Notes under the pieces: generated by a model | Databases searched by the model: none | What the model saw: only the letters and a program-made list of their open reading frames with translations | Told to the model about the DNA's origin: nothing | Position numbers and translations under genes: made by a program | Source: an uncultured Chloroflexia bacterium | GTDB taxonomy: Bacteria; Chloroflexota; Ktedonobacteria; Ktedonobacterales; JADMIN01 | Direction of reading: 5' to 3' | DNA: 32,000 nucleotides | Assembly: GCA_963718915.1 (NCBI GenBank) | Contig: CAVRAI010000007.1 | Span: 270,001-302,000, forward strand | Shown: positions 7,228 through 26,315 of the stretch, in pieces | Layout of the letters: the number at the start of each line of letters is the position of its first letter | How positions within the stretch are numbered: the first letter of the stretch is position 1

Positions 7228-7245
7228 GCAACTCGGCTTACCGTT

Positions 7246-7319
7246 AGGGGCGGCCCCGCCGGGAATCGAACCCGGATGCTCGGTTTAGAAGACCGATGCT
7301 TTGTCCATTAAGCTACGGA
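7246..7319. repeat. direct repeat copy 2 (74 nt, within the intact tRNA-Arg)
   Basis: Identical to 4962..5035. Confidence 0.95.
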
Positions 7320-7322
7320 GCC
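7251..7322 (-). tRNA. tRNA-Arg(UCU), intact
   Basis: Hand fold: acceptor GGCUCCG/CGGGGCC (7 bp including one G:U). D arm GCUU-AAUGGACA-AAGC. Anticodon arm UCGGU-CUUCUAA-ACCGA. 4-nt variable region. T arm CCGGG-UUCGAUU-CCCGG. Discriminator G. CCA is not encoded. Confidence 0.9.
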
Positions 7323-10862: not shown

Positions 10863-11354
10863 ATGACACAGGAGAAAACAGTGAACCGCTATTTTCAGGA
10901 AAAGTGGCCCTGGATCGAGGGCACTCACGGCATGCGCCTGCAATTGCTCGATGCGCTGAGCGATGAAAACCTCTCGTTCAATCCAGGCGGCGAAAATGTG
11001 ACGCTGGGCGCGCTGTGCCGCGAGTCTGGCGATGTCGAATACGCCTACATCCAGTCGCTGAAGACCTTCAAACAGGACTGGTCATATCACAACGAGACGC
11101 CGGGTATCGAGACCAGCGTGGCGCAGCTCAAAGCGTGGTATCAGCAGATGGATGAGGAGATCAAGGCCATCGTCGAGGCGATGTCTGACGACGATCTGAA
11201 GAAGACAATCGATCGTGGTGGCTATCCGGCGCCGGTGGATTCGCAGCTTGACATCTACCTTCAGGCGCTGCTCATCTTCTTCGGCAAGGTATCAATCTAC
11301 TGCAAGACGCTGAACATCGAGATGACATCGACCTTTAACGAGTATATCGGCTAA
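10863..11354 (+). CDS. DinB-superfamily protein
   Basis: Start at MTQEKTV (ATG 10863). Helical bundle-style sequence (RLQLLDALSDENLSFNP...GALCRESGDVEYAYIQSL...LDIYLQALLIFFGK). Family assignment is tentative. Confidence 0.5.
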   Translation: MTQEKTVNRYFQEKWPWIEGTHGMRLQLLDALSDENLSFNPGGENVTLGALCRESGDVEYAYIQSLKTFKQDWSYHNETPGIETSVAQLKAWYQQMDEEIKAIVEAMSDDDLKKTIDRGGYPAPVDSQLDIYLQALLIFFGKVSIYCKTLNIEMTSTFNEYIG

Positions 11355-11431
11355 CGCGAGCGGCAAGTCGACTATGTGATACCGCTCTCTTGTGACGGCT
11401 TATCGTCTCTACGACGTGAAGGTCCCTGCCG

Positions 11432-12741
11432 TCAGGCATGTGGGGGGTCAACTCTATGTGAGAGCCAGAGTGAGATATCTGTCGGTTGCATCGTCTCCTG
11501 AACGACCGCGACGAGCTGGTTCGTCAGGGTGGGGAGATCGACCTGCTGGCGCAGGGACGCGCCAAACTGCTCTATCGCTTGGCGCGCATCGTACTTGCCA
11601 CGGTAGAAGCGCCGATCCACCGCACGCTGGATTCGCGCCCGCAAGGGCTGGAAGAGCGCGGCAATCAGCAGCGTGGTGATGACGATAACGGGTGATGAGA
11701 AACCCTCGCTGCCGCGAGACTGCGCAATAAGGTCAATCAGGGCTTGCAGGCCAATGATACCGCCGATATAGACCAGCGCCAGAGTGGCCGTGAGTGAGCC
11801 GTAGATCAGCGTGCGCCGAATCACCACGTCGATGTCATAGAGTCGGTACCGCTGAATGGCAATGAAGAATGTAGATGGCAGCAATAGCAGCGTAATCAGA
11901 TAGAACAGCAATGTGAAAGGACCATAGACCGTTGCCCGTAGCGAATCCAGGCCATTGGTCTGCCAGAAGATCTGATTGGCCAGCAGCGAAGCGATAAGAC
12001 CAAATACGAACCATTTGGTCTGTTGCCGCTGCACAGGAGTGGAATGTCGCCAGAAGCGGTAAAGCTGGCAGAGAATGGCGCTGCCATAGAGCAGTGGATA
12101 GCCAAGGTAGAGCAGCCGCATCGAGGATGTTGAGCTGGAGCGTGATAGCGGTGATATCGAATAGACCAGATGAGCAGCAGTATCCAGGACCAACGCGGCA
12201 CAAAACGTCCGCTGGGAAAGATGAGGAAGGCGCCGTAAAATACAGCGAAGAACGGAAGATTGAGCAGCGCAATGATCAGGGATGCGAGCAGAGAGCTTGA
12301 TAGAGGGCCAGAAGAGTTTAGCGCGCTGATATTGCCGAGCGGTAAAGCCACCAGGAAGAAGGCGACGATGAGAGCCATCCAGTCGTCGGAGCGCCGCCAG
12401 AATACCAAGAGCGCCATCGCTAGCGAGATCAATAGAACGAGACACGAGAGTGTCACGACAATCCAGGCGTAGGCGTCCATGCTGATACCGATATCGGCGA
12501 GCGCATGCGCCTGTTGTGGCACAAAGGCGCATGTATCTGGACACACCTTCCCCACGGTGGCGAAGAGATCGGGAATCCCAGTGGCGAACGACACCAGACT
12601 AAACGCAATCAGCACAATCCAGGCGACGCGCGCGACCAGCAGCCTCTTCCCGCGCAGGCGAAAATCGCCGCCTTGTGTGAGTCTGCTCGGCGTCTTGTTA
12701 GACATATCGTTAGCAGATGGCGCTCTCACCGTTTTGCTCAT
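11432..12741 (-). pseudogene. frameshifted paralog of the 9470..10789 sensor-like membrane protein
   Basis: The N-terminal 2/3 reads in the frame of ORF 11896..12741 up to ...LIFPSGRFVPRWSWILLLIWSI. The C-terminal part (LYRFWRHSTPVQRQQTKW...VDRRFYRGKYDARQ...) reads in the frame of ORF 11432..12544. The frame switch is needed around 12090-12170. Confidence 0.6.
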
Positions 12742-12963: not shown

Positions 12964-12979
12964 TGTGATATTTGTCGCA
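12964..12979 (+). promoter_or_regulatory. CRP/FNR-family-like site TGTGA-N6-TCGCA
   Basis: TGTGATATTTGTCGCA has one mismatch to TGTGA-N6-TCACA. Its centre lies ~32-37 nt upstream of a possible -10 (CATACT/TACTAT at 13001-13008). It is 83 nt upstream of the operon start. Confidence 0.3.
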
Positions 12980-13061
12980 GCGAATTCGGCCCAACCAAAT
13001 CATACTATGTTGGGAAAGAGCGGCATGGAAGGGGCGCCAGTAACACCGGAGGAGGAGCAAG

Positions 13062-14165
13062 ATGGATACGCGGCTTGGGCAGCGCAGTATAGCAGTTATC
13101 TTTGGCGTGGCGGCGGGACTGGGGCTGGTCGCACTCATTGCCCTTGGCTCGCGCGGCTTCCACTGGTTCGATTCCGCGCTGATCGGCTACGCCGTCGCCT
13201 CGATCTTCGCGCTGGCGGCGGTCACCTATAAATACACCTTCTGGCTGATGCGCCCGCAGACCGGTCGCTATTTCTGGCGCAGCTGGCAGCTTTTTCTCTC
13301 GCTCCAGAACTTTAAGCGCTATACGGCGCTCATCCCGCTCGCCATTCTCGACCTCTTCACCCAGCAGTTCATCCGCAGGCGCGCCTGGTATCGCTGGGTG
13401 ACGCACCAGTGCATCTTCTGGGGCGTGGTCATCTCCTGTCTCATCACCTTCCCGCTGACCTTCGGCTGGCTGCGGTTCACCCAGCCTGTCAACACCCTGC
13501 AGCAGCAACAGATCTGGGTATTCGGCTTCCAGCTCTTCTCGTTCGATCCGACCTCGCCATTTGGCTTCGTGATCTATCACGCGCTCGATTTCTCGGCGGC
13601 GCTGCTGCTCATCGGGCTGATTCTGGCGTTCCATCGGCGTTTTCATGACCTGGCGCTGATCGCTGTGCAGCGCTTCCGCTTCGATATCGTGCCGCTGGCG
13701 CTGCTCTTCGCCATTGTCATCACGGGCCTCGCGCTCACCGCCGATAGCGCGTTCTTCGGCGGGGCGTATTACTGGTTCATCTCGCTGACGCATCAGGCGA
13801 TTGTCGTGCTTTGGCTGATCTCGCTGCCGTTCGGCAAGTTCTTCCACATCATCGAGCGGCCAGCCACCGTCGGCGTCGAACTCTACTGGCGTACCGGCGA
13901 GGATACCACCCAGCGCACCTGTCCGCGCTGCGGGCAGCCGTTCGCGCCAGCGCGCTTCGTCGCCGATCTCAAACGGACGCTCTATGACATTGGCCAGAAC
14001 TATGCGGTGAGCGAGCAGGAGGGCGCGCCGATTGAGGATCATTCAGGGCGCGAGGCGGCCACCGTGGGCGTCTGGTGGCAGGACTTCTGCCCCGACTGCA
14101 AGCGGATCATGCGCGGCCAGGCCAATCTCGCCGCGATGGGCGGTCAGGGCAACCGCTTCCTGTGA
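13062..14165 (+). CDS. NarI/DsrM/HdrE-like b-type membrane subunit with C-terminal CxxC...CxxC zinc ribbon
   Basis: RBS GGAGGAGGAG. About 6-7 TM helices with intramembrane His residues (VTHQC, IYHAL, LTHQA). The terminal motif LPFGKFFHIIERP resembles the PFxKLxH ending of the nitrate-reductase-gamma family. The cytoplasmic tail carries CPRCGQPF...CPDCKRI. Confidence 0.55.
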   Translation: MDTRLGQRSIAVIFGVAAGLGLVALIALGSRGFHWFDSALIGYAVASIFALAAVTYKYTFWLMRPQTGRYFWRSWQLFLSLQNFKRYTALIPLAILDLFTQQFIRRRAWYRWVTHQCIFWGVVISCLITFPLTFGWLRFTQPVNTLQQQQIWVFGFQLFSFDPTSPFGFVIYHALDFSAALLLIGLILAFHRRFHDLALIAVQRFRFDIVPLALLFAIVITGLALTADSAFFGGAYYWFISLTHQAIVVLWLISLPFGKFFHIIERPATVGVELYWRTGEDTTQRTCPRCGQPFAPARFVADLKRTLYDIGQNYAVSEQEGAPIEDHSGREAATVGVWWQDFCPDCKRIMRGQANLAAMGGQGNRFL

Positions 14166-14230
14166 GCGATTGCGAAACGTTCAATTGCACGTCTGTACGT
14201 CCGAACACCAGCTTTGGGGTGGGGCGAGCA

Positions 14231-14294
14231 GGCCGTAGCATGAATGCTACGGCGAATGGGCAGGGAAATTCGCCGACGCCTTTGGGCTTCAGGC
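14231..14294 (+). repeat. structured intergenic repeat, copy 1 (two hairpins)
   Basis: The sequence CCGTAGCA-TGAA-TGCTACGG is followed by GCGAAT-(10 nt)-ATTCGC and ends in CTTCAGGC. It is homologous to 16641..16710. Confidence 0.65.
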
Positions 14295-14351
14295 ACAACA
14301 ATCAAACAAACCTGGCGTCACGCGATAACACCTGGAAGGCAGAGTATTCCG

Positions 14352-16631
14352 ATGAGCGTTGATAAAGGCGTCTTCAACGAGGGCCAGCGCGACACCTATG
14401 ACTTCCACGAGAGCAAGGAAACACCCTGGCGCTCGAACGAAGAGGTTGACCGCTACGTGCCGACGCACTGCTGCTACTGCGGGGTGCAGTGTGGCATGAA
14501 CCTCAAGGTGTCGGGAGGGAAAGTCGTTGGCGTCGAGCCGCGCTACGACTTCCCGGTGAATCGGGGTATGCTCTGCCCCAAGGGCACGACCGCCTATCAG
14601 ACGGTCAACCATCCCGACCGTCTCACCTCGCCGCTGATGCGCCGCGGCGGCAAGAACAGTCCGCTGGAGCCGGTAAGCTGGAATGAGGCGCTCGATACAG
14701 TGGCTCGGCGCTTCCGCGAGATTCAGGGACAGCATGGCAAAGACGCCGTCGCGGTCTATAGTGGCTCCTCGATGACCAACGAGAAGTGCTACCTGATGGG
14801 CAAATTCGCCCGCGTCGCCCTGGAAACGCGCCACTGCGACTACAACGGGCGGCTCTGCATGTCGTCCGCGACGGGGGCCAATGAGCGCTCGCTCGGCATT
14901 GATCGCGCCGCTAATCCCATCAGCGATATGCTGCATTCCGACGTGATCTTCGTCATCGGCGCCAATGTGGGCGAGTGCTTCCCCATCGTCACGAGCTGGC
15001 TCTGGCGCGCGCGCGACCGTGGCGCGAAGCTCATCGTAGCCGATCCGCGCCAGACACCGATTGCCCGCACCGCCGATGTCTTTCTGCCGCTCCGCTCCGG
15101 CACCGATTCAGCCCTGCTCAATGCGATGCTGAATGTCGTCATTCGCGAGGGGCTGGTGGATGAGGAGTTCATCCGCAGTCGCACGAACGGCTGGGACGAG
15201 ACGAAGGCGCTGGTGGAGCAGTATCCGCCGGAGCGCGCGGCGAAGGTCTGCGGGCTGCGTCCCGAGACGATCATCGACGCGGCGCGACTCTACGGGCGGG
15301 CGAATGCGGCGATGATCTATACGGCGCGCGGACTGGAGCATCAGAGCAAGGGCGTCGATAACGGCGTGGCAGCGGTGAATCTGGCGCTGGCAACTGGCAA
15401 CTTTGGCCGCCCAGGCGCGGGCTATATGACGCTGACGGGCCAGGGCAACGGCCAGGGCGGGCGCGAGATGGGCCAGAAAGCCTCGCAGCTGCCGGGCGAG
15501 CGCGAGATCGAGGATCCCGAAGATCGCGCCTATATCGCGTCGGTCTGGGGCATCGATGAGAAAGATATGCCGCACTCTGGCTACCCGGCGACGCTGATGA
15601 TTCCCGCTATGTTACGCGAGGAGATTCGCGGCTGCTTCATGATCTGCTCGAATCCGATGGTCTCGCTGCCCGACCAGCACACGACCGAGCGGGCGTTGCG
15701 CGCGCTCGATTTCTTCGTCGTCTGCGACTTCTTCATGTCGGAAACCTGCGAGCTGGCGGATGTGGTGCTGCCGGGCAACGTCTGGGCTGAAGAGGAAGGC
15801 ACCACGACCAACCTGGAGGGGCGTGTCATCAAGTATAACCGCGCGGTTGACCCACCGCAGGGCGCGCGCCGTGACTGGCAGATTGTCTGTGACCTGGCGC
15901 AGCGGCTGGGCAAGGGGCAATATTTCTCCTTCAAGTCCCCACGCGAGATCTTCGACGAATTACGCATCGCCACCAAAGGCAGCAAGGCAGACTACTTCGG
16001 CATCACCTATGAGAAGATCGAGCGGCAGAACGGCGTCTTCTGGCCATGTCCCACCGAGGAGAGCCAGGGAACGCCACGTCTCTACGAGGAGAGTTTTGGC
16101 TTCGCCGATGGCAAGGCGAAGTTCCACCCGATCACGTATCTGCCGCCCGCCGAGGAACCGGACGCCGAGTATCCGATGGTGCTGACGACGGGGCGCGTGA
16201 TCTATCACTATCTTTCGGGCAACCAGACGCGCCGCACGCCATTCCTGCTGGAGCAGGCGCCCTATCCGTGGGTGGAGATACACGAGCGGACGGCAAACGA
16301 GCTGGGCATCCGCGATAGCGACTGGGTCACGGTGCGGACGCGCCGTGGCGAGCTGACCGCTCCGGCGCTGGTGGTGAAGTCCATCCGGCCCGATACGCTT
16401 TTCATTCCTTACCACTATGGCCACACGCAGGCGGCGAACATCCTGACCAATCCTGTCCTCGAACCGATGAACAAGATTCCTGAGTATAAGGTCTGCGCCG
16501 CATCAATCGCGAAGGCGAAACAGCCGCCGGACTGGGCGAAAGATGTCAATCCGGCGCAGTTGCGGGCCACACGTGGACGCCGCCGCCGCCTGCCCAGCAC
16601 GGGCGAACAACAGGGGCCAACGGTGAGTTAG
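14352..16631 (+). CDS. Mo-bisPGD oxidoreductase catalytic subunit, NarB/NasA/NapA-like (putative nitrate reductase)
   Basis: The N-terminal 4Fe-4S motif is HCCYCGVQCGMN...MLCPKG. GRLCMSSATGANERSLG is a Cys Mo-ligand segment like RLCMSSA of assimilatory nitrate reductases. LTGQGNGQGGREMGQ is also present. The C-terminal dinucleotide-binding barrel reads VEIHERTANELGIRDSDWVTVRTRRGE. No twin-arginine signal. Start at MSVDKG (ATG 14352), since the track start 14244 covers the repeat element. Confidence 0.85.
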   Translation: MSVDKGVFNEGQRDTYDFHESKETPWRSNEEVDRYVPTHCCYCGVQCGMNLKVSGGKVVGVEPRYDFPVNRGMLCPKGTTAYQTVNHPDRLTSPLMRRGGKNSPLEPVSWNEALDTVARRFREIQGQHGKDAVAVYSGSSMTNEKCYLMGKFARVALETRHCDYNGRLCMSSATGANERSLGIDRAANPISDMLHSDVIFVIGANVGECFPIVTSWLWRARDRGAKLIVADPRQTPIARTADVFLPLRSGTDSALLNAMLNVVIREGLVDEEFIRSRTNGWDETKALVEQYPPERAAKVCGLRPETIIDAARLYGRANAAMIYTARGLEHQSKGVDNGVAAVNLALATGNFGRPGAGYMTLTGQGNGQGGREMGQKASQLPGEREIEDPEDRAYIASVWGIDEKDMPHSGYPATLMIPAMLREEIRGCFMICSNPMVSLPDQHTTERALRALDFFVVCDFFMSETCELADVVLPGNVWAEEEGTTTNLEGRVIKYNRAVDPPQGARRDWQIVCDLAQRLGKGQYFSFKSPREIFDELRIATKGSKADYFGITYEKIERQNGVFWPCPTEESQGTPRLYEESFGFADGKAKFHPITYLPPAEEPDAEYPMVLTTGRVIYHYLSGNQTRRTPFLLEQAPYPWVEIHERTANELGIRDSDWVTVRTRRGELTAPALVVKSIRPDTLFIPYHYGHTQAANILTNPVLEPMNKIPEYKVCAASIAKAKQPPDWAKDVNPAQLRATRGRRRRLPSTGEQQGPTVS

Positions 16632-16640
16632 GGGAAAGCG

Positions 16641-16710
16641 CGCCGTAGCGTAAACGCTACGGCGAATGGGCGGATGCTTCGGGTGCGGAAATTCGCCGGG
16701 GCCTTCAGGC
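16641..16710 (+). repeat. structured intergenic repeat, copy 2
   Basis: The sequence CCGTAGCG-TAAA-CGCTACGG is followed by GCGAAT-(23 nt)-ATTCGC and ends in CTTCAGGC. The stem change A:T to G:C relative to copy 1 is compensatory. Confidence 0.65.
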
Positions 16711-16761
16711 TCCGGCATGTGACGCCTGGCGCTACGTTCGTGGTTCATAGGGGAGCACGCT

Positions 16762-17529
16762 ATGGCGGTAAAACGCATATTTCTCGATCCCTCGCGCTGC
16801 ATTGGCTGTCGCGCGTGCGTGGCAGCGTGTCGCGAATGCGATACCCACAAGGGCGAGAGCATGATCTTCATCGACTATATCAATCGCGAGACGACCGTCG
16901 CTACCTCGCCGACGCTGTGTATGCACTGTGAGGAGCCAGTCGCGCCGTGCGCGCAGGTCTGTCCGGCGCAGGCGATTCTCATCAGCCCCGACGGCGTTGT
17001 GCAGCAGGCGGATGAGACGCGCTGCATCAATATTCAGAACTGCGTCTACGTCTGTCCATTTGGTGTACCAAAGTTCGATGGGCCGGGACGCATCATGCGC
17101 AAGTGCAATCTCTGCTACGACCGTACCAGCGTGGGTAAGCCGCCGATGTGTACCTCTGTCTGCCCGACGCAGGCGCTCTTCTACGGCACCTACGAGGAGT
17201 GGGTTCAGGCGGGACGCGGCCAGCAGGGCGCCAAGCCGGTGAACGTCTTTTACTTTGGCCAGCAGCGCGTGCGCACCCGCAACTATGTGGTGATGCGCGA
17301 GCAGGACGACGCGCTCGACCTGATGGCGCTGGCCGAGGAGGCGCAGTTGGGCAACCTGGGGGACGTACCCATCGCGACCACCGCACAGGAGTCTGAGGAG
17401 TGGGTGGAGGCCGGGAATGCGGGCATCCCCGAACGGAGCGCGCCACCGCAGCCCTGGGCGCCCCGCACGCCGCAAGAAGTACCCGCGCAGCCTGTTCCAG
17501 CCACCACACCTGAGCCGGTTCACCAGTGA
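16762..17529 (+). CDS. four-cluster ferredoxin-type FeS subunit (DmsB/NarH-like) with Pro/Ala-rich C-terminal tail
   Basis: Four Cys groups are present: CIGCRACVAAC, CMHCEEPVAPCAQVCP, CINIQNCVYVCP (second Cys replaced by Ile) and CNLCYDRTSVGKPPMCTSVCP. RBS AGGGGAG. Confidence 0.85.
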   Translation: MAVKRIFLDPSRCIGCRACVAACRECDTHKGESMIFIDYINRETTVATSPTLCMHCEEPVAPCAQVCPAQAILISPDGVVQQADETRCINIQNCVYVCPFGVPKFDGPGRIMRKCNLCYDRTSVGKPPMCTSVCPTQALFYGTYEEWVQAGRGQQGAKPVNVFYFGQQRVRTRNYVVMREQDDALDLMALAEEAQLGNLGDVPIATTAQESEEWVEAGNAGIPERSAPPQPWAPRTPQEVPAQPVPATTPEPVHQ

Positions 17530-17642
17530 TTCAACATTCGTATCTTCTGTTCTCTAGAGCCTGCGCAGGCAGGCTTTGCGGATGTGCGAGAGCACATCCC
17601 TTAGGCGCGGCTTCAGCCGCCAGCCTGTTGTGAGGAGCAGCT

Positions 17643-18263
17643 ATGACAGATATCCACGATGACCCAGGTGGCGACAAGCCTGCGAGCGCCCAGGAGCGCA
17701 CGCCAGAAGAGATCGCGGCGGCGGAGGCTTCGCGCGCCCGTCGCGCCCGTGAGTCTGCCCGCCGGTTACGCAGCGTCGTTCAGGGCCAGCAGTGGCGCGA
17801 GGAGTTCCCGTACCACTGGCGCGCCGACGATCTGGTGACGCGGCGCGATACGCTACGTTTTCTGGTGGCGGGCAGTGGCGCGCTCTTCGTCGCGACGACC
17901 GCGCTGGCGGCCGTGGGTAGCCTGCGGTCTACCAGTAGCGTGAACGTTAAAGCAGTGGCGCGGGTAGGCGAGCTGGCGGAGAATGAGTGGCGCGTCTTCA
18001 ACTTTCCCGACCAGTACGCGCAGGGCATCCTGGTCAATCTACCGGGGAAAGGGTTGGTGGCCTACAGCGATGTCTGCACCCATCTCTCCTGCGCCGTGCT
18101 CTACCAGCCGGGGGAGCAGAAGTTCCATTGCCCCTGCCACGAGGGCTTCTTCGACGCTTTTACCGGTGATGTGCTCGCGGGGCCGCCGACGCGCCCGCTG
18201 CCAATCATCGAGCTGCGCACGAGTGGTGGAATCGTCTACGCGGTGCGGGAGGTGGAGCGATGA
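17643..18263 (+). CDS. Rieske [2Fe-2S] protein, bc-complex/arsenite-oxidase-like boxes, RR motif plus hydrophobic anchor
   Basis: Box I is CTHLSC and box II is CPCHEG, 12 residues apart. TRRDTLRFLVAGSGALFVATTALAAVG begins at residue 66, after a long charged N-terminus. RBS GAGGAG. Confidence 0.85.
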   Translation: MTDIHDDPGGDKPASAQERTPEEIAAAEASRARRARESARRLRSVVQGQQWREEFPYHWRADDLVTRRDTLRFLVAGSGALFVATTALAAVGSLRSTSSVNVKAVARVGELAENEWRVFNFPDQYAQGILVNLPGKGLVAYSDVCTHLSCAVLYQPGEQKFHCPCHEGFFDAFTGDVLAGPPTRPLPIIELRTSGGIVYAVREVER

Positions 18264-18664
18264 CGGACGAACTGGACCGGTACGACGACGAAGACCACGA
18301 CACGCCCGCCTGGGGGCAGGTCGCCGACGATGAGCAGGTGTTGATGCGCCGCCAACACCTCGCCAATCCCGACGATGCGCCGGGCTATATCACGCCAGAC
18401 GAGCACGCCAGCCATTTGCGCGGCCCCGACTTTACCGGCTCGCCGGGATTCGTCGCCATCGTGCAGGGGCAGGTCTATCTGGTCGCCGCTATCCTGATCA
18501 TACAGCTATTCCTCATCACCACCGGGCTATTCGAGCTATTATCTGGCCGGGCAAGCGTCCTTTGGTGGATTGCCGGGGCCAGCCTGATTGCCTTCCTGAT
18601 TGCCCTGCTGATTATGCTCTGGCCACGCAGGCGTCTCCTCGGTAGCTCTCAGGCCAGCAGATAG
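18260..18664 (+). CDS. small membrane protein (acidic N-terminus, 2 TM helices), translationally coupled to the Rieske gene
   Basis: ATGA start/stop overlap at 18260-18263. The TM segments are VYLVAAILIIQLFLITTGLF and VLWWIAGASLIAFLIALLIMLW. No family recognised. Confidence 0.6.
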   Translation: MTDELDRYDDEDHDTPAWGQVADDEQVLMRRQHLANPDDAPGYITPDEHASHLRGPDFTGSPGFVAIVQGQVYLVAAILIIQLFLITTGLFELLSGRASVLWWIAGASLIAFLIALLIMLWPRRRLLGSSQASR

Positions 18665-18679
18665 ACGACAAGGACAAGC

Positions 18680-19405
18680 ATGACGACTTCGGATCCGGGT
18701 GGCGCTGAGACACAAGAGACGCCAGCGGCGCCAGAGACGCCAGAGACGCCGGACACTTCGCGGGACGGCTATCGCATTGACAGCCAGCACCCTATCGGCG
18801 GCGAGATGTCAGACATTCTGGCAGGCCTCTTTCGCCGCTTTCAGCTCAGGTGGCTGCTGGCGCACTATGCGCGTGTGCCAATACTGGCGCTCTTCAGCTT
18901 CATCAATGGCTGTCTCAGCATTGGTATCATGGCGATGGTGGCCGTTGTCACTGGCTCGCCTTTCATCTTCCCCTCGCTTGGCCCGACGGCGTTCCTCTTC
19001 TTTTACACGCCGACCGCACCGACCGCATCCCCTCGCAACGCGCTGATTGGGCATACGATTGGCGTGGTGGCTGGCTACTTCAGCCTGGTCGTCACCGGGC
19101 TGACGATGGCGGGGCCAGCATATGCCGTCGGTGTCACCGGGCCGCGTGTGATTGCCGCCGCACTTTCGCTGGGGCTGACATCAGGACTGATGGTGTTGCT
19201 GAAGTCGCCGCATCCTCCGGCGGGCGCGACTACGCTCATCGTCTCCCTGGGCATCCTGACGCAGCCCAGGCAGCTCGTGATTCTGCTGCTCGCGGTGGTG
19301 ATGCTCACCGTGCAGGCGTTTGTCATCAATCGGCTCGCTGGCATTGATTATCCACTCTGGAGTCCCCGCCGCGACCCCTCAGGCAACCCCCTGCGCACGC
19401 GCTAA
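18680..19405 (+). CDS. HPP-family integral membrane protein
   Basis: The eponymous motif LKSPHPPAGATTLIVSLG is present, with 4-5 TM helices. Members of this family have been reported as nitrite transporters in cyanobacteria and plastids. Confidence 0.8.
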   Translation: MTTSDPGGAETQETPAAPETPETPDTSRDGYRIDSQHPIGGEMSDILAGLFRRFQLRWLLAHYARVPILALFSFINGCLSIGIMAMVAVVTGSPFIFPSLGPTAFLFFYTPTAPTASPRNALIGHTIGVVAGYFSLVVTGLTMAGPAYAVGVTGPRVIAAALSLGLTSGLMVLLKSPHPPAGATTLIVSLGILTQPRQLVILLLAVVMLTVQAFVINRLAGIDYPLWSPRRDPSGNPLRTR

Positions 19406-19425
19406 ACAGGTAAGGACTTTTTTCT

Positions 19426-20838
19426 ATGTCGACCATTGCTCCGGAACGTACTGCGCGTCGCCAGGAACCATTCTCGCGGGTTGCGCCGATGCTGGGGGCG
19501 GCGCTGCTGATTGGCGCGGGCGGCGGCTTTGTGCTGGCCAGCGTGCTGACGTTGACGCGCGCGTTCCGCGTGCCGACGGGCGTATGGTGGGTGGCGCTGG
19601 CTCAGGCGCATGGACACCTCCAGCTCTATGGCTGGGCGGGCCTCTTCGTCCTGGGCGTCGCGTTCCACTTCCTGCCGCGGCTGCGCGGCGCCGGACTGGC
19701 GTACCCACAGGCGGTTCCCTGGCTGCTAGGGATGCTGGTGGCCGGTATCGTGCTGCGGGGCATCGGCCAGCCGCTGTTCGCCGCGACGGGACTGGGTATC
19801 TGGAAGATCGCGATGGTCACCAGCGGAGCGCTCGAAGCGTTCGCGTTCCTGGGGTTTCTGACTATTGTCGTCGCGACGGCGATGCAGGGACCGAAGTTCA
19901 GCACGCGCCCGCAGTTGCAGAAGACACTTCCCTTTCTCGTCGGCATCTTCGTCAGCCTGGGTCTGGCCGCCATCATCAACCTGTTTAACGTATCATTGGC
20001 CAGCGTCGTAGCAGTCGCGGGAGTCGTGCCAGCAAGCGGCGACGCGATCAATGTGACCCTTGGCCTGCTCGGCTTCCTCGTTCCGATGGCGCTGGCGATG
20101 TCGGCGCAGACGCTGCCGATGTACGCCGGGCTGGAGCCTTTTCCGCGGAAGCTGTTCTGGCCGCTCGCCATCGGCTATTTTGGCGGGCTGGCGCTGGCGC
20201 TGGTGGGTATTGGCAGCGGCGTCGGCTGGCTGGAGGGGCTGGGCACTTTCCTGGTGGGAGCCGTGCTGTTGATTTTCGTCAGCCTCTTCATGCGGCTGAT
20301 GCGCGCGCGGGGCAAACTGCCGCAGCGGGTGGCGAAGCTGGCGCCCGAACCCGAGGCGGCGGAGCATCACTACCGGCGGCAGATATCGAGCGACCGCAGC
20401 GCCTATGGGCCATTCGTGGCGCTGGTGGCGAGCGCATACACCTGGGCGATTGTGGGTGGCGCGCTGCTGGTGATCGATGGCATTGCGGGCGTGCTGGATC
20501 TGGACGCGCCAGTCTCGCCGGATGCCGCCCGCCACAGCCTCGCCATCGGCTTTATCGCGCTGCTCATCTGCGGCATCGCGCCGCGCATGGTACCCGGCTT
20601 CTCCGGCGGCCACATCCTCTCGGCGAAGCTGGTGACGGCGACGCTCTGGCTCGGCAATAGCGCCGCGATTCTGCGGGTGGGATCGCTGCTCATCGCGCCA
20701 CTGCTCGATGCGCTCGGCCCGGCTGGCGCGTTGGTGGATTCGCTGCTGTTCGGCCTCTCGGGACCACTGGGCCTGGCGCTGGCCATCTGCCTGGCGGTGA
20801 ACCTCTGGCCAGCGCTCTTTCCGAAGGATCATCGCTGA
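19426..20838 (+). CDS. NnrS-like polytopic membrane protein
   Basis: About 12 TM helices over ~470 aa. AQAHGHLQLYGWAGLFVLGVAFHFLPR resembles the conserved HxHxxxFGW...GFL..A.P block of NnrS. RBS TAAGGA. Confidence 0.55.
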   Translation: MSTIAPERTARRQEPFSRVAPMLGAALLIGAGGGFVLASVLTLTRAFRVPTGVWWVALAQAHGHLQLYGWAGLFVLGVAFHFLPRLRGAGLAYPQAVPWLLGMLVAGIVLRGIGQPLFAATGLGIWKIAMVTSGALEAFAFLGFLTIVVATAMQGPKFSTRPQLQKTLPFLVGIFVSLGLAAIINLFNVSLASVVAVAGVVPASGDAINVTLGLLGFLVPMALAMSAQTLPMYAGLEPFPRKLFWPLAIGYFGGLALALVGIGSGVGWLEGLGTFLVGAVLLIFVSLFMRLMRARGKLPQRVAKLAPEPEAAEHHYRRQISSDRSAYGPFVALVASAYTWAIVGGALLVIDGIAGVLDLDAPVSPDAARHSLAIGFIALLICGIAPRMVPGFSGGHILSAKLVTATLWLGNSAAILRVGSLLIAPLLDALGPAGALVDSLLFGLSGPLGLALAICLAVNLWPALFPKDHR

Positions 20839-20887: not shown

Positions 20888-21020
20888 ATGTCGGGCATGA
20901 AAGCCGCACATCACGCGCCACTATGTTGTAGTCTGAGGACGTATAGGTATACGAATATGCAGGCGGATGACGTTCTGCCGCGAACGAGCACAGGCGCGCT
21001 TGCGGAGGAGAGGTGGCCCG

Positions 21021-23633
21021 ATGGCGGTGGACTTACTGGAGCGCGACCCCTTCTTGCTGACGCTAGACGACCTGCTGCGCCAGGCCGGTGAAGGGCGAGG
21101 GCGCGTCGCACTGATTAGCGGTGAGGCGGGCATCGGCAAGACATCGCTGGTGGAGTGGTTTCTTGAGCGGCATCAGGGGACGACGCGCACACTCTGGGGC
21201 GCATGTGAGGCGCTCTTTACGCCGCGCCCATTAGGCCCGCTGTACGACATCGCGCGGCAGACGAAGGCTCCCTTGCGTACGCTCCTCGCTGGTGATGCGA
21301 ACCGTGCATCGCTCTTTGCCGCAGTGCTCGATGAGCTTAGCCACGACCGCGCGCCGACCATCGTGGTGATCGAAGATATTCACTGGGCGGATGAGGCGAC
21401 GCTCGACCTGATTAAGTTTCTGGCCCGACGTATTCAACGCACATCAGCCCTCCTCATCCTGACCTACCGTGACGATGAGCTTACCAAAGACCACCCGCTT
21501 CGCCTCGTGCTCGGCGATCTTCCATCGGACAACGTCACGCGCGTGTGGCTGCCACCACTCTCCGAGATCGCGGTTGCCACGCTTGCCCAACAGGCAGGTC
21601 GTCCAGTGGGGAATCTTCACGCGGCCACCAGGGGTAACTCATTCTTCCTCAAAGAGGTGCTGGCAAGCGATATGCCAGGGCCGCCGACGAGTGTGCGTGA
21701 CGCGGTGCTGGCGCGGATTGCCCGCCTCTCGTACGAGGCGCAATGCTTTCTCGAACTGGCGTCCGTCGTGCCCACGAAGTTGGAATGGCGGACGGTTGAG
21801 GCGATGACTGTTGTGGATAATGTCTGGCTTGAGGAATGCCTGGCGTCCAGCATCTTGCAGCTTGAGGATGGATTACTGGACTTCCGCCATGAGCTTGCGC
21901 GTCAGGCCGTAGAGAGCACGCTGTCACCCTCACGGAAGCGGATGCTGAACGCCCAGGTGCTGCGCGTGTTCGTGGAACTCGGTGAAGGGCAGGTATCGCT
22001 GGCGCGGCTCGTGCATCATGCCACGCAGGCCGACGACCGGGAGCTGGTGCTGCGTTTTGCGCCAGAGGCGGCGCGGCAGGCATCCGCCCAGGGCGCGCAT
22101 CGTGAGGCGGCGGCGCATTATCGCACAGCGCTGCGTTACGCCAACGGCCTGGGCGATGAGCAACGGGCCGAACTGCTGGATGGCCTGTCATACGAGTGTT
22201 TGCTCACTGGTCAGGTCGACGAAGCGCTCCAAACCTGCACGGCGGCACTCGCGATCTGGCGGACGCCCGACCACACGGAGCAACTTGGGCGTATGCTCCG
22301 CCGATTATCACGAATCTCCTTGACGTTGGGCCGCAATACGGATGCGGAGAGGTATGCGGAGGAGGCGGTGGAGTTGCTGGAAACCCTGCCACCGAGTCGC
22401 GAGCTGGCCATGGCGTATGGCAACATGTCGCAATTGCGCATGCAGGTGAGTGATGATGCCAATGCTCTGCTCTGGGGCGAGCGCGCCATCGAGCTGGCCG
22501 AGCGGCTCCATGAGGGTGAGATTGTGTGTTATGCCCTTATCAGCATCGGCAGCGCTGAAGTGTGCCTGGGCGACGAAAAGGGGCAGGCCAGAATGGCGCG
22601 CGGTCTTCAGCTGGCCCTGGAACATGGCTATGAAGAGCAAGTCGCGCGCGCCTATGCCAATCTCGCCGACATCAGCGCCATGCAACGCGCCTATGCCGAG
22701 GCTACAGACTACTTAAAGGCGGGCTTAGCGTACTGCGCCGAGCATGATATGGACTCGATACGCGATAGCATGCTGGCAGTTCAGGCGCGAATTTTGCTCG
22801 ATCAGGGTGACTGGATTGGAGCGGAAGAAGGTGTCACCACGCTTTTGAGTCTCCCCCAGGCAAAAGCGTCAGATCCTACTCCAGCGCTGCTTATTCTTGG
22901 CCTGGTGCGGGCGCGGCGTGGCGACCCTGGCGTGGAGGCGGCGCTCGACGAGGCGCGTGACCTGGCGGCAGCCACGGGCGAAATGCAATTCATCTCACCC
23001 GTGGCGGCGGCGCGGGCGGAGTGGCGCTGGCTTGAGGGTGATTGCGACGGTTGCAGCGACGAAGCTGCTGTCGGCTTCCCGCTGGCATTCGCGGCGAACC
23101 GTCCTTGGTACTGGGGCGACGTGGCAATCTGGCTCTGGCGTGGTGGCAGGATGACCGAGGCGCCTGAGCGGACACCTGCTCCCTTCGCACTGGAGATCGC
23201 GGGCGACTGGCGCGCGGCGGCGGATGCCTGGGAGCGGATCGGGTGTCCCTACGAGCAGGCGCTGGCGCTTATGGGCGGCGATGAGACGGCCCAACGCAAC
23301 GCCCTGGCGATATTTGAGCGATTGGGCGCGCGCCCCGCCGCCGAGATCGTGCGACAGCGGTTGCGTTCGGCAGGCGTGCGTGGCTTGCCCCGTGGCCCGC
23401 GCTCCACCACCCGCGAGAATCCGTACGGCCTGACCAGCCGCCAACTCGAGATTCTGCTGCTCTTGGCGGAGGGGTTGCGCAACCCGGAGATTGCCGACCG
23501 GCTCTCGACGACCCCCAAGACGGTGGAGCACCATGTCTCGGCAGTGTTGGCCAAACTCAATGTGCGCTCGCGGGCTGAGGCGGTGCGTCTGGCGTATCAG
23601 TTGGGACTGTTTCCCCAGGCCGAGCGCATCTAG
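21021..23633 (+). CDS. LAL-type regulator: AAA/STAND ATPase - TPR-like repeats - LuxR HTH
   Basis: Walker A is GEAGIGKTSLV and Walker B is IVVIEDIHWADEATLDL. A long helical repeat region follows. The C-terminus reads LTSRQLEILLLLAEGLRNPEIADRLSTTPKTVEHHVSAVLAKLNV. Start at ATG 21021 behind GGAGGAGAGG. Confidence 0.85.
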   Translation: MAVDLLERDPFLLTLDDLLRQAGEGRGRVALISGEAGIGKTSLVEWFLERHQGTTRTLWGACEALFTPRPLGPLYDIARQTKAPLRTLLAGDANRASLFAAVLDELSHDRAPTIVVIEDIHWADEATLDLIKFLARRIQRTSALLILTYRDDELTKDHPLRLVLGDLPSDNVTRVWLPPLSEIAVATLAQQAGRPVGNLHAATRGNSFFLKEVLASDMPGPPTSVRDAVLARIARLSYEAQCFLELASVVPTKLEWRTVEAMTVVDNVWLEECLASSILQLEDGLLDFRHELARQAVESTLSPSRKRMLNAQVLRVFVELGEGQVSLARLVHHATQADDRELVLRFAPEAARQASAQGAHREAAAHYRTALRYANGLGDEQRAELLDGLSYECLLTGQVDEALQTCTAALAIWRTPDHTEQLGRMLRRLSRISLTLGRNTDAERYAEEAVELLETLPPSRELAMAYGNMSQLRMQVSDDANALLWGERAIELAERLHEGEIVCYALISIGSAEVCLGDEKGQARMARGLQLALEHGYEEQVARAYANLADISAMQRAYAEATDYLKAGLAYCAEHDMDSIRDSMLAVQARILLDQGDWIGAEEGVTTLLSLPQAKASDPTPALLILGLVRARRGDPGVEAALDEARDLAAATGEMQFISPVAAARAEWRWLEGDCDGCSDEAAVGFPLAFAANRPWYWGDVAIWLWRGGRMTEAPERTPAPFALEIAGDWRAAADAWERIGCPYEQALALMGGDETAQRNALAIFERLGARPAAEIVRQRLRSAGVRGLPRGPRSTTRENPYGLTSRQLEILLLLAEGLRNPEIADRLSTTPKTVEHHVSAVLAKLNVRSRAEAVRLAYQLGLFPQAERI

Positions 23634-23672
23634 AAGTTCGACCGAAGCCTGGCTGAAAGGTGCGGTGGTCGG

Positions 23673-26315
23673 ATGACGGTGGACTTACTGGAGCGCGACC
23701 CCTTCTTGCAGACGTTGGACGACCTGCTGCGCCAGGCTGGTGAAGGGCGAGGGCGGGTCGCGCTGGTCAGTGGTGAGGCGGGCATCGGCAAGACCTCGGT
23801 CGTCGAACGCTTCGTCGAGCGCCATCCCTCCGCGGCGCGTGTCCTGTGGGGGACGTGTGAGGCGCTCTTCACGCCGCGTCCGCTCGGCCCGCTGTATGAT
23901 ATCGCCCATCAGGGTCGGCCCACGCTCCGCGCGATGCTGGAAGACGGGGAGAACCGCGCGACGCTCTTTGCCGCAGTGCTCGACGAGCTTGCGTACCCTC
24001 CTCCTCCGACCGTGCTGGTGATCGAAGATATTCACTGGGCGGATGAGGCGACGCTCGATCTGGTCAAGTTCCTCGCCCGACGTATTCACCGCATACCAGC
24101 CCTGCTCATCCTGACCTACCGCGACGACGAGATAGATCGCGACCATCCTCTTCGCCTCGTCCTGGGCGACCTTCCCGCGCGTGATGTGGTTCGGCTCCAG
24201 CTTCCTCCTCTCTCGGAGGCTGTGGTGACGGCGCTCGCCGAGCAGGCTGGTCGCTCGACAGCGCAACTCTATGCCACGACCGGCGGTAATCCGTTCTATG
24301 TCACCGAGGTGCTTGCCAGCCATGCGCCGGGGATTCCCGTGACCATACGCGACGCGGTCATGACACGAGTCACGCGGCTCTCACCCGGCGCGCGCGAGGT
24401 GCTCACGCTTGCGGCGGTGGCGCCGAACCAGATTGAGCAGTGGGTCATTGAAACAGTGCTTGGCGCGTCATCGGCGCCCGCGCTGGAAGAGTGCCTCGCC
24501 GTGGGCATGCTCTCTCAGGACCGCACAGCGCTCACGCTCCGCTTCCATCACGAGCTGGCGCGCCAGGCAGTCGAGGGCGCAATCTCTCCAGCCCGCGTGC
24601 GGACGCTCCACGCCGACGTTCTTCGGGCGCTGCTCGCGCATGCAGGGGCGCAGATCGAGGTTGCGCGGCTGGTGCATCATGCCGCGCTGGCCCAGGATGC
24701 CGAGCAGACGCTACGCTTTGCGCCACAGGCGGCGAAACAGGCCTCTGCCCAGGGGGCGCATCGCGAGGCGGTGGAGCAGTATCGGACCGCCCTGCGTTTC
24801 GCGGACGGACTGGAAGCTAACCAGCGCGCTGAACTGCTTGAAGAACTGGCGCACGAGTATCTCCTGACCGGGCGAATGCCGGAGGCGATACAGGCGGGCG
24901 AGGATGCGCTGGCTATCTGGCGAAGGCTCGACATTCCTCTGCGGGTTGGCCACAACCTGCGCTGGTTCTCGCGTGTCTACTGGTACGTAGGGCAGGGGGC
25001 GGAAGCCCGCCATTATGTGGATGCGGCGGTGCGTCTGCTGCAAACATTACCCCCTGACAGCGAGTTGGCGTGGGCATATAGCTACCGGGCGATGTTTGCA
25101 ATGCTGGCGGAGGAGACCGATGACGCTCAGGAGTGGAGTAACCGCGCCATCGAACTGGCTGAACAGCTTGGCGACGACGAGGTGTTGATCCACGCTTACA
25201 ACACCCTTGGGATGTCTCAGATGAATGTGGGCGACCGGCAAGGGCAGGCGCTGGTGGAGCGGAGTCTTCGCCTCGCGCAGGAGCGTGGCTACGAGGAGCA
25301 TGTTGGTCGCGCCTATGCTAATCTATCATCCTACTTTGTGCGATTCCGCGACTATGCAAACGCCCACCACTATGTTGAATTGGGCATCACCCATTGCAGC
25401 GATAACGATCTCGATCTCTACAAGCATCAACTCATTGCCTGGCGAGCATTGGCCAGCCTCGATCAGGGAAACTGGCTGGCGGCCAGCGAAGACGCGAATG
25501 AGGTTGTCCGCGCCTATCGGGGTTCTCCGGTCAATACGATTCACGCGCGCGCCGTCCTTGGCTGGGTGCGAATGCGCTGCGGCGACCCTGGTATGGATGC
25601 TCCATTGGACGAAGCCCGTGATCTGGCGCTGTCCACTGGCGAATTACAGCGCATTGCCCCGGTCATGGCTGCTCGCGCCGAGTCAGCCTGGCTGCGTGGC
25701 GATCTCGTTCAGTGCGCGGCGGAGGCGCGTGTTGGCTTCGAGGTAGCGCGCGCGCACAGCAACCCCTGGCAACTCGGACAACTGGCCTTCTGGCTCTGGC
25801 GCGCTGGCGCCGTGACTCAGGCTCCGCCGGGCGCTGCGGCCCCGTACGCGCTCCAGATGGCGGGCGACTGGCAAGCGGCGGCAGACGCCTGGGAAGCGAT
25901 TGGCTGCCGCTACGAGCAAGCGCTGGCGCTCATGGACGGCGATGAGGCGGCCCAGCGGCAGGCGCTCACCCTCTTCGAGCGGCTGGGGGCGCGCCCCGCC
26001 GCCGAGATGCTGCGACGGCAGCTCCGCACGGCCGGCGCGCGCGGCCTGCCCCGTGGCCCGCGTCCGGCGACACAGGCGAACCCCTATGGGCTGACCAATC
26101 GCCAGCTCGAAATCCTCTTGCTGCTGGCCGAGGGGCTACGCAACCCGGAGATTGCCGACCGGCTCTCGACAACCCCCAAGACGGTGGAGCATCACGTCTC
26201 GGACGTGCTGGCGAAACTGAATGTGCGCTCGCGGGCCGAGGCGGTGCGTCTCGCCTATCAGCTCGGTCTTGTCCCTCAATCAGCAAATCCTCCCACTGGC
26301 AAAATGGGGGTCTGA
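23673..26315 (+). CDS. LAL-type regulator, tandem paralog of 21021..23633
   Basis: Same architecture (GEAGIGKTSVV, VLVIEDIHWADEATLDL, LTNRQLEILLLLAEGLRNPEIADRLSTTPKTVEHHVSDVLAKLNV). A 39-nt gap separates it from the upstream paralog. Confidence 0.85.
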   Translation: MTVDLLERDPFLQTLDDLLRQAGEGRGRVALVSGEAGIGKTSVVERFVERHPSAARVLWGTCEALFTPRPLGPLYDIAHQGRPTLRAMLEDGENRATLFAAVLDELAYPPPPTVLVIEDIHWADEATLDLVKFLARRIHRIPALLILTYRDDEIDRDHPLRLVLGDLPARDVVRLQLPPLSEAVVTALAEQAGRSTAQLYATTGGNPFYVTEVLASHAPGIPVTIRDAVMTRVTRLSPGAREVLTLAAVAPNQIEQWVIETVLGASSAPALEECLAVGMLSQDRTALTLRFHHELARQAVEGAISPARVRTLHADVLRALLAHAGAQIEVARLVHHAALAQDAEQTLRFAPQAAKQASAQGAHREAVEQYRTALRFADGLEANQRAELLEELAHEYLLTGRMPEAIQAGEDALAIWRRLDIPLRVGHNLRWFSRVYWYVGQGAEARHYVDAAVRLLQTLPPDSELAWAYSYRAMFAMLAEETDDAQEWSNRAIELAEQLGDDEVLIHAYNTLGMSQMNVGDRQGQALVERSLRLAQERGYEEHVGRAYANLSSYFVRFRDYANAHHYVELGITHCSDNDLDLYKHQLIAWRALASLDQGNWLAASEDANEVVRAYRGSPVNTIHARAVLGWVRMRCGDPGMDAPLDEARDLALSTGELQRIAPVMAARAESAWLRGDLVQCAAEARVGFEVARAHSNPWQLGQLAFWLWRAGAVTQAPPGAAAPYALQMAGDWQAAADAWEAIGCRYEQALALMDGDEAAQRQALTLFERLGARPAAEMLRRQLRTAGARGLPRGPRPATQANPYGLTNRQLEILLLLAEGLRNPEIADRLSTTPKTVEHHVSDVLAKLNVRSRAEAVRLAYQLGLVPQSANPPTGKMGV

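Follow-up and report, generated by a model that had tools for sequence, protein, structure and literature searches.

Several described systems contain redox partners of the kinds considered here, most of them around a catalytic subunit that binds molybdenum bis-pyranopterin guanine dinucleotide (Mo-bisPGD). In NarGHI, a NarI cytochrome b anchor and a four-cluster iron-sulfur (FeS) subunit, NarH, serve the catalytic subunit NarG in the cytoplasm, whereas the cytoplasmic assimilatory enzymes NasC, NasA and NarB depend on NADH, ferredoxin or flavodoxin as donors, and in Paracoccus the Rieske-type protein NasG feeds NasC within a NasC-NasG-NasB system. In the pNar systems of haloarchaea and Methanoperedens, the nitrate reductase is genetically coupled to a Rieske protein (NarB) and a cytochrome b (NarC); in arsenite oxidase (AioAB) and iodate reductase (IdrAB), a Mo-bisPGD subunit is joined by a Rieske protein with a twin-arginine translocation (Tat) signal; and in the bc1/b6f complexes, a membrane cytochrome b works with a Rieske protein that is inserted through Tat, contains the disulfide cysteines and is held by a short tether. 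The present analysis concerns a cluster of seven genes (g1 to g7) in a 32,000-nucleotide stretch of contig CAVRAI010000007.1 from an uncultured Chloroflexia bacterium, hereafter the window, in which a NarI-like anchor, a Nas-type catalytic subunit, a four-cluster ferredoxin and a Rieske protein are encoded side by side. Every part is of a known kind; assembled in this way, they correspond to none of the Nar, Nap, Nas, Aio or archaeal pNar layouts. A layout without a characterised counterpart had been proposed from the letters of the DNA alone (the original prediction), and open-access papers and preprints, in which absence is not proof, indeed yielded no description of this subunit set, the nearest being a remark on linked nasC, FeS and Rieske genes in Bacillus bataviensis (PMC3475470).

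Across relatives, the conserved unit is a set of five genes (g1 to g5) together with one variable anion-carrier position. At a probability of roughly 0.55, we read g1 to g5 as a membrane-bound, menaquinol-dependent nitrate reductase with NarGHI-like wiring, a catalytic subunit of the NasC clade and an active site in the cytoplasm. The gene set, its conservation, the assignments of families and active sites and the predicted topologies were established directly, and the interpretation originally proposed is, overall, supported. The features of the cluster are as follows.

12964..12979, forward strand: candidate Crp/Fnr-family operator TGTGATATTTGTCGCA, 98 nucleotides 5' of the g1 start codon
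13062..14165, forward strand: g1, membrane anchor, NarI-like cytochrome b with six transmembrane (TM) segments and a C-terminal Cys4 domain predicted to be cytoplasmic
14352..16631, forward strand: g2, Mo-bisPGD catalytic subunit of Nas/Nap type, 759 amino acids (aa), without signal peptide
16762..17529, forward strand: g3, four-cluster ferredoxin subunit (DmsB/FdnH/NarH superfamily), without signal peptide or TM segment
17643..18263, forward strand: g4, Rieske [2Fe-2S] subunit with a predicted cytoplasmic N-terminal tail, a twin-arginine motif and one TM anchor
18260..18664, forward strand: g5, small 2-TM subunit, DUF6755-like, with an acidic N-terminus and an ATGA overlap with g4
18680..19405, forward strand: g6, HPP-family membrane protein (TM_HPP), candidate nitrite carrier
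19426..20838, forward strand: g7, divergent NnrS-like polytopic membrane protein, accessory and outside the conserved core

Measured against these systems, the cluster resembles NarGHI in its NarI-homologous anchor, its four-cluster FeS subunit, its predicted cytoplasmic Mo-bisPGD subunit and its linkage to NarK and Fnr-type regulators, as well as in the three cysteines of group III in the window g3, which correspond to the [3Fe-4S] site of NarH. It differs in that g2 is Cys-ligated, belongs to the Nas/Nap/Fdh branch and spans only about 760 aa against 1250 for NarG, that g3 is not a NarH, that g1 has an extra TM segment, a Cys4 tail and another placement of two haem ligands, and that the Rieske and DUF6755 subunits have no Nar counterpart; neither the window nor the related loci showed a NarJ-like gene. 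The closest catalytic subunits are those of NasC, NasA and NarB, which share the domains and active-site motifs of g2, are cytoplasmic and lack a signal peptide. However, g2 falls under the NasC equivalog cut-off, forms a separate sister clade without linkage to nirBD or nirA, and has membrane proteins and a four-cluster ferredoxin as its partners, where the assimilatory enzymes use donors that depend on NADH, ferredoxin or flavodoxin. A Rieske partner is less unusual than originally thought, since NasG offers a Nas precedent, but g4 is of the Tat-anchored, respiratory bc/Aio type and not of the soluble NirD/NasG type. From pNar the cluster is set apart by its signal-less Nas-type subunit, the pNar counterpart being NarG-type with its own Tat signal and an active site outside the cell, and by its NarI-type cytochrome b where that of pNar belongs to the bc1/b6f family. 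Although AioB is near g4, AioA holds a [3Fe-4S] cluster and leaves its Mo without a protein ligand, and Aio is fully periplasmic, with neither a four-cluster subunit nor a cytochrome b anchor. Compared with bc1/b6f, g1 has no Qo (PEWY)/Qi architecture, a cytochrome c1 or f is missing, and a low-potential branch would here end at a Mo enzyme and not at a Qi site. NapA, finally, differs in that g2 scores under its cut-off and lacks a twin-arginine signal.

Conservation was assessed by scanning one genome per species with the g1 alignment, which gave 283 loci, 80 of them retrieved; gene order was judged in the 55 Chloroflexota loci of sufficient length and carriers in the 44 loci with enough flank, while linkage screens covered 82 loci. 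The order g1>g2>g3>g4 is kept on one strand within 6 kb in 53 of the 55 Chloroflexota loci, so the adjacency is not a product of chance; of the other two, one has a deletion (Ktedonobacter racemifer) and one is a remnant copy. Behind the Rieske gene stands a 2-TM gene in every lineage examined, the most distant group of Chloroflexota included. The five-gene set also occurs on four Deinococcus megaplasmids (two inspected in detail), in Brevibacillus laterosporus, on a Bacillota-like contig, in one metagenome-assembled genome each of Anaeromyxobacteraceae and Blastocatellia and in one further metagenome locus, and the stop and start codons of the core genes often overlap in relatives. In a plasmid collection, homologues of g1 are confined to five records, the same five in which g2 has its best homologues. 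The anchor family itself comprises 882 clusters at 50% identity (E<=1e-3) and occurs in Chloroflexota, Acidobacteriota, Myxococcota, Deinococcota and Bacillota. The predicted conservation of the neighbourhood is therefore borne out across at least five phyla, although the supposed seven-gene module contracts to five genes plus a carrier, the NnrS-like gene being linked in only 9 of the 82 loci.

Individual loci show further peculiarities. In the type strain Ktedonobacter racemifer DSM 44963 (locus L037, ~11100-12100), the Mo gene is shortened, and between g2 and g5 the genes for the FeS and Rieske subunits are absent, an arrangement that looks like an internal deletion of the cluster. The second copy in Ktedonobacter sp. 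SOSP1-85 (L080, 7310-13477) is a remnant paralogue with a split anchor, in which the first ~240 residues of the Mo subunit continue into a lantibiotic dehydratase reading frame, and it is situated immediately 3' of cydAB, the genes for cytochrome bd oxidase. In Deinococcus (L083, 4530-4727; L088, 8649-8861), a conserved soluble open reading frame (ORF) of 65-70 aa overlaps the start of the anchor gene; none was seen in the window.

By profile and by predicted fold, the anchor g1 is a homologue of NarI. Hydropathy indicates six hydrophobic segments, the last helix ending in LPFGKFFHIIERP (residues 255-267) and being followed by a tail of ~100 aa whose CPRC...CPDC motif marks a zinc-ribbon or rubredoxin-like Cys4 domain. 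The originally proposed NarI likeness stands through these two lines of evidence and finds no backing in Pfam, as the window g1 alone has no Pfam match of its own, cytochrome b/b6 included. A profile of 38 family sequences retrieves Escherichia coli NarI (1Q16_C) as its best PDB match (E=9e-5) and aligns H244 with NarI H187 and H262 with NarI H205; divergent family members reach 20.8-22.4 bits on PF02665, slightly under the cut-off of 22.9, and fused members match the membrane domains of qmoC (E=5e-8) and TcuB (E=5e-7). An AlphaFold2 model built from a 128-sequence alignment (predicted local distance difference test score, pLDDT, 92; predicted template modelling score 0.85) has NarI chains as its top Foldseek matches in the PDB (probability 0.95-1.0), alongside mycobacterial EtfD, whereas a model from 13 close homologues was discarded at a pLDDT of 55.

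In the 128-sequence alignment, H115, H244, H262 and C287 are invariant, and H173, C290, C343 and C346 are at least 90% conserved. The second candidate pair of haem ligands, H115 and H173, sits on two different helices, whereas H56 and H66 of NarI share one, and among the 38 most divergent family representatives residue 173 is His in 19 and Asn or Gln in the other half. Lysine and arginine residues number 8 in loop 63-108 and 4 in loop 192-208, against 1, 1 and 0 in the alternate loops; the N-terminus, these two loops and the Cys4 tail are therefore predicted to be cytoplasmic, in agreement with the cytoplasmic C-terminus of NarI. Furthermore, some members of the family (P0131, P0171, P0199) are fused behind a 12-TM NarK-family transporter of the major facilitator superfamily (MFS), and one such fusion, on a Bacillota-like contig, heads a Mo-FeS-Rieske-2TM operon. 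The anchor is therefore tied physically to nitrate/nitrite transport, and the fusion also agrees with an N-terminus that starts inside. Such fusions are also the likely source of a misleading RefSeq label, 'MFS transporter', given to unfused NarI-like anchors (L083, 4720-5832; L088, 8854-9966).

The catalytic subunit g2 carries the Pfam domains Molybdop_Fe4S4, Molybdopterin and Molydop_binding. Its best NCBIfam model is that of NasC (NF047855; 818.5 bits, under the cut-off of 1100), and it scores 680.2 bits on the Fdh-alpha model TIGR01591, over the cut-off of 666.25; it reaches 427 bits on the haloarchaeal NasA model, 287 on NapA (cut-off 904), 175 on arsenite_ox_L (cut-off 359) and 70 on narG TIGR01580 (cut-off 1084), and lies far under cut-off on the AioA and ArrA models. 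The best solved relatives are formate dehydrogenases (FDHs), at 568 bits. An FDH identity, to which the TIGR01591 score and the PDB matches point, was rejected on the catalytic residues and the tree. In alignments, g2 has RLCMSSA and LTGQGNGQGGREMG where FDHs have C-H and RGQNNVQ, that is, C-M against Sec/Cys-His and LTGQ against LRGQ; both catalytic FDH residues are thus lacking, because Met and Thr take the places of His and Arg, as in Nas and Nap. The motifs TGQGNGQGGRE and RLCMSSA are shared in pattern by g2 and the nirBD-linked NasC of Mycobacterium, Skermanella and Deinococcus gobiensis, and g2 is 47-50% identical to nirBD-linked NasC.

A neighbour-joining tree of Mo subunits (686 columns, 100 bootstraps), which is small and distance-based, agrees with the profile scores and motifs: the cluster-type subunits of Chloroflexota, Deinococcus and Brevibacillus form a single clade (96%) whose sister group (96%) is nirBD-linked NasC, with the FdhF references in a separate clade (97%). 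The expectation that the Mo subunit would not group with formate dehydrogenases was therefore correct. So was its description as a Nas/Nap-type protein without signal peptide, given the domains, the RLCMSSA segment and a start, MSVDKG, that is conserved in orthologues. No twin-arginine motif or hydrophobic N-terminal region was found in g2 in any phylum examined, and in every lineage examined both g2 and g3 are devoid of a signal or TM segment.

The FeS subunit g3 matches Fer4_11 (68.6 bits), has four cysteine groups and contains no hydrophobic segment. Its best NCBIfam models, FDH-beta, HybA and DmsB, are each under cut-off, and narH TIGR01660 gives 34 bits against a cut-off of 524. In the window and its closest relatives, cysteine group III (residues 88-99; 17023-17058) reads CINIQNCVYVCP, a CxxIxxCxxxCP pattern with three cysteines, whereas most orthologues have CxxCxxCxxxCP. 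A three-cysteine group III gives NarH the [3Fe-4S] cluster beside its anchor, and the window g3 is therefore predicted to hold a [3Fe-4S] and not a [4Fe-4S] cluster at this position.

The Rieske subunit g4 (Rieske Pfam match, 39.5 bits; arsenite_ox_S, 48.8 against a cut-off of 95.65) has the boxes CTHLSC and CPCHEG, including the two extra disulfide cysteines characteristic of Rieske proteins outside the cytoplasm. In Chloroflexota, Deinococcus, Myxococcota and Acidobacteriota, its N-terminal region shows (D/E)FPxxW, then an invariant [ST]RRx[FTLM] and one weakly hydrophobic segment, while Brevibacillus has the canonical twin-arginine sequence RRGFMK without (D/E)FPxxW. Among solved structures, g4 comes closest to the Rieske protein of the Thermus bc complex (E=1e-14), AioB (4e-11) and b6f PetC, with cytoplasmic dioxygenase ferredoxins matching only at E~3e-4. 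Because of the Tat motif and anchor, the disulfide cysteines and these bc/Aio relatives, the Rieske domain is predicted to lie outside the cell; the same motif and cysteines, together with the nearest solved structures, led to the rejection of a cytoplasmic Rieske ferredoxin of the NasG/NirD type. Box II of g4 lacks the Ser and Tyr hydrogen-bond donors that raise the potential of bc1 Rieske proteins, as is the case in low-potential, menaquinol-oxidising Rieske proteins, which suggests, on the basis of established knowledge, a low-potential centre compatible with menaquinol. An induced Rieske gene of Thermomicrobium roseum, trd_0121, was also considered and set aside, as it stands beside sarcosine-oxidase-like genes and does not belong to this cluster (Islam et al. 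2019, supplement).

The small subunit g5 scores 17.6 bits on DUF6755, under the cut-off; its orthologues are named DUF6755 in RefSeq for Deinococcus and match PF20540 in two further loci (L097, L099). For g3, g4, g5 and the HPP protein g6, Pfam matches, motifs and hydropathy agree with the earlier descriptions as a four-cluster protein, a Rieske protein with bc-type boxes, a 2-TM acidic protein and an HPP-family member.

Beyond the core, g6 matches TM_HPP (PF04982) with 92.6 bits (cut-off 27.2). The nitrite transport known for this family, as PMC7438415 cites it from Maeda et al. (2014), is that of cyanobacterial and plastid members only. Among the 44 loci, the carrier beside the core is HPP in 29, a SLAC1/TehA-type channel in 9, NarK in 1 and none in 5; no two carriers ever occur together, and the choice is mutually exclusive in 39 of the 44. 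HPP sits downstream of the core and the SLAC1/TehA-type channel usually directly upstream of g1, and their strict alternation suggests the same job. Moreover, NarK-family transporters adjoin the clusters of Deinococcus and Brevibacillus. For g7, by contrast with g6, the window protein reaches only 24.1 bits on NnrS (PF05940; cut-off 28), with residues 325-430 covered; it has 11 hydrophobic segments by hydropathy, and many homologues carry PF05940 and the JGI name 'protein involved in response to NO'. What had been called NnrS-like is thus, judged by its sequence, a divergent NnrS relative at best. A polytopic protein of ~450 aa without Pfam match, paired with small DUF2249 proteins, lies near the cluster in 13 loci (e.g., L081, 6778-8517; L082, 16900-19378) and has marginal similarity to g7 (E=0.016).

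Neighbouring genes set the cluster apart from assimilatory loci. A NirB homologue lies within 10 kb in 0 of the 82 loci, and NirD gave a single match (L061), whereas in reference Nas loci of the same collections nirBD and nitrate-transporter genes are tightly linked. In 18 related loci the cluster is bordered by Crp/Fnr regulator genes, and DUF2249, an FeS-assembly protein, Usp and a PAS-GAF kinase are further recurrent neighbours; in Brevibacillus, narK and an Fnr-like gene stand beside it, the Anaeromyxobacteraceae locus has qNor, a GAF-sigma54 (NorR-like) activator and hemerythrins, and the Blastocatellia locus has ScdA/RIC and a hemerythrin. Position 12964, originally taken as the start of the genes, lies out of frame upstream of g1 and begins a Crp-like palindrome, the sole TGYGA-N6-TCRCA match in the window; the same pattern precedes g1 in 11 of 78 related loci, with an expectation of ~0.7, and the cluster is probably expressed under a regulator of the Crp/Fnr type.

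From sequence, structure prediction and gene context, we infer a substrate, a quinol donor, a direction and sidedness of electron flow and a physiological role for the complex. Quinol would give up its electrons on the outer side of the NarI-like cytochrome b, where the Tat-anchored Rieske cluster may form part of the quinol-oxidising site, provide an extra electron entry or open a second, outward branch. Electrons would cross the membrane through haems held by H173/H244 and H115/H262 and enter the four-cluster g3, docked on the cytoplasmic face, probably with the aid of the g1 Cys4 tail and the cytoplasmic tails of g4 and g5; they would then reach the [4Fe-4S] cluster of g2 and its Cys-ligated Mo-bisPGD, at which nitrate would be reduced to nitrite in the cytoplasm. 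Nitrite may exit through HPP (g6), or through SLAC1 or NarK in other loci, and the NnrS-like g7 may limit damage by nitric oxide (NO).

Nitrate is proposed as the substrate because the best model is NasC, the Cys-Met pair and TGQGNGQGGRE are present, the FDH His and Arg are absent and the clade is sister to NasC, and because of NarK adjacency, the NarK::anchor fusion and the mutually exclusive HPP, SLAC1 or NarK neighbours. A cytoplasmic position of the active site is supported by the homology to NarI, the positive-inside counts, the topology of the fusion and the absence of signal and TM segments in g2 and g3. A dissimilatory role, in energy conservation or redox balancing at low oxygen, is probable in view of the unlinked NirB, the Crp/Fnr, Usp, PAS-GAF kinase, DUF2249 and FeS-assembly neighbours and the presence elsewhere of narK-fnr, qNor, the NorR-like activator, hemerythrins and ScdA/RIC. 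The originally proposed nitrate or N-oxide respiratory module thereby gains backing from NarK adjacency, the fusions, the HPP/SLAC1 carriers and the qNor, RIC and NnrS neighbours, while its 'respiratory' element keeps the standing of a proposal.

Several observations weigh against this assignment. In a redox loop of purely Nar type, no clear task suggests itself for a Rieske centre that faces outward, and, to our knowledge, the only Mo-enzyme/Rieske pairs described, Aio and Idr, keep both subunits on the same side of the membrane. The two-haem wire is not certain across the whole family, since H173 is replaced by Asn or Gln in half of its most divergent members. Additionally, g2 is under the NasC cut-off yet over that of TIGR01591; the operator is not significant in the window alone, where one or more matches also arise in 27% of shuffles; descriptions of cultured Ktedonobacteria present them as aerobes; and an assimilatory role through nirBD or nirA genes unlinked to the cluster is possible.

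This last point leads to a reading that we regard as unlikely though credible, in which the complex and its chemistry are the same and the role is assimilatory, a quinol-driven substitute for NADH- or ferredoxin-dependent Nas that feeds an unlinked nitrite reductase. Carriers such as Ktedonobacteria and Deinococcus are mainly aerobes, and the Mo subunit is sister to, and nearly half identical with, NasC from bona fide nirBD operons. The linkage of nasC with FeS and Rieske genes in Bacillus bataviensis was likewise interpreted as an alternative assimilatory system (Heylen and Keltjens, 2012; PMC3475470). Against this stand the screens for NirB (0/82) and NirD (L061 only), set beside genuine Nas clusters that are closely bound to nirBD and nitrate transporters, and the nature of the recurrent neighbours, which are Fnr/Crp, qNor, RIC, hemerythrin, NnrS-like, DUF2249 and Usp and not GlnR/NtcA-type or ammonium-assimilation genes; export of nitrite via HPP would, moreover, waste nitrogen.

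The sidedness of the complex invites another interpretation, which we consider distinctly unlikely: g2 and g3 would fold in the cytoplasm and hitch-hike on the Tat signal of the Rieske protein, as AioA does on AioB, so that nitrate would be reduced outside the cell ('pNas') and HPP or NarK would import or handle nitrite. The Tat motif is found in the Rieske subunit of every lineage, AioB is among the closest solved relatives of g4, known Mo-enzyme/Rieske pairs such as AioAB touch on the same side, and the lack of signals in g2 and g3 is what would be expected of hitch-hikers. However, homology to NarI places the FeS subunit at the cytoplasmic end of the anchor, beside the H115/H262 haem; the anchor, Rieske and DUF6755 subunits have conserved cytoplasmic extensions and short outer loops; and NarK adjacency together with the NarK::anchor fusion points to nitrate import. 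No linked gene for a Tat-proofreading chaperone was seen, and we know of no precedent for two large subunits hitch-hiking on a Rieske anchor.

A decidedly improbable but consequential variant keeps the cytoplasmic nitrate reductase and gives the Rieske centre a task of its own, by making the complex part Nar-type redox loop and part bifurcating quinol oxidase of the bc type. One electron of quinol would pass inward through the NarI-like haems to nitrate reduction in the cytoplasm, and the other outward through the Rieske protein to an extracytoplasmic nitrite or NO reductase, a cupredoxin or a cytochrome. If true, nitrate and downstream N-oxide reduction would be coupled at a single quinol site, the enzyme would represent a fourth prokaryotic nitrate reductase class beside Nar, Nap and Nas, and it would be the first in which a Rieske protein is paired with a NarI-type cytochrome b.

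It is very improbable that the complex acts on another substrate (formate, chlorate/perchlorate, selenate or arsenic oxyanions) and that its nitrogen-related neighbours are incidental. The TIGR01591 score (680 against 666 bits), the FDHs among the best solved relatives and the ability of Nap and Nas enzymes to turn over chlorate (PMC12769810) speak in its favour; against it, the catalytic His and Arg of FDHs are replaced as in Nas/Nap, FdhF forms its own clade, the AioA and ArrA models remain far under cut-off, and nitrate/nitrite carriers are linked or fused in most loci. Finally, the idea that the seven genes adjoin one another by chance has a negligible probability, for although only close relatives share g7 and the seven-gene set in its exact form, and gaps of 113-186 nucleotides separate g1, g2, g3 and g4 in the window, the five-gene order, kept in 53 of the 55 Chloroflexota loci and in a further four phyla, with frequent stop/start overlaps, has already refuted it for g1 to g6.

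Within the window, all seven ORFs are present on the forward strand and co-directional, g4 and g5 are translationally coupled through the ATGA overlap, and the junctions run from this 4-nucleotide overlap to a 186-nucleotide gap, as originally described. The latter value holds because g2, whose ORF opens at 14244, is taken to start at M37 (14352), where its orthologues also begin. A perfect 7-bp hairpin, GTAGCAT-GA-ATGCTAC (14235-14252), lies within this g1-g2 gap and has no Rfam match; the Rfam scan of the window returned two tRNAs only, with no molybdenum-cofactor or other riboswitch in the gap, and promoter and terminator scans gave chance-level results. Other nitrogen-metabolism genes are absent from the flanks of the cluster in the window, which hold DinB-like genes upstream and two AAA-TPR-LuxR regulators downstream. 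These regulators (20967-26315; 888 and 880 aa) are tandem, MalT-like paralogues directly 3' of g7; the pair was found by tblastn in just one related locus, the closest one (L001), and is probably outside the system. Further upstream, an AbiEii/AbiEi toxin-antitoxin pair (5029-6599, minus strand) lies between tRNA genes at 4967-5038 and 7251-7322 (minus strand), and the region 4967-7322, which also contains an SSB-like ORF, may be a small integrated element.

The favoured reading of g1 to g5 as a quinol-linked nitrate reductase would make this family a test case for the redox-enzyme construction kit, in which the role of a Rieske centre on a NarI-type cytochrome b is the new element. The question is directly testable, because culturable carriers exist: Brevibacillus laterosporus, Deinococcus psychrotolerans, Dictyobacter and Thermogemmatispora. 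Surveys of nitrogen-cycle genes sort Mo nitrate reductases as Nar, Nap or Nas, and members of this clade would be binned as nasA/narB and hence counted as assimilation. If the complex is quinol-linked and associated with hypoxia or NO, a widespread dissimilatory source of nitrite from nitrate would have been overlooked; and with many members of the carrier phyla being abundant in soil, genes assigned there to assimilation may in fact serve nitrate reduction at low oxygen.

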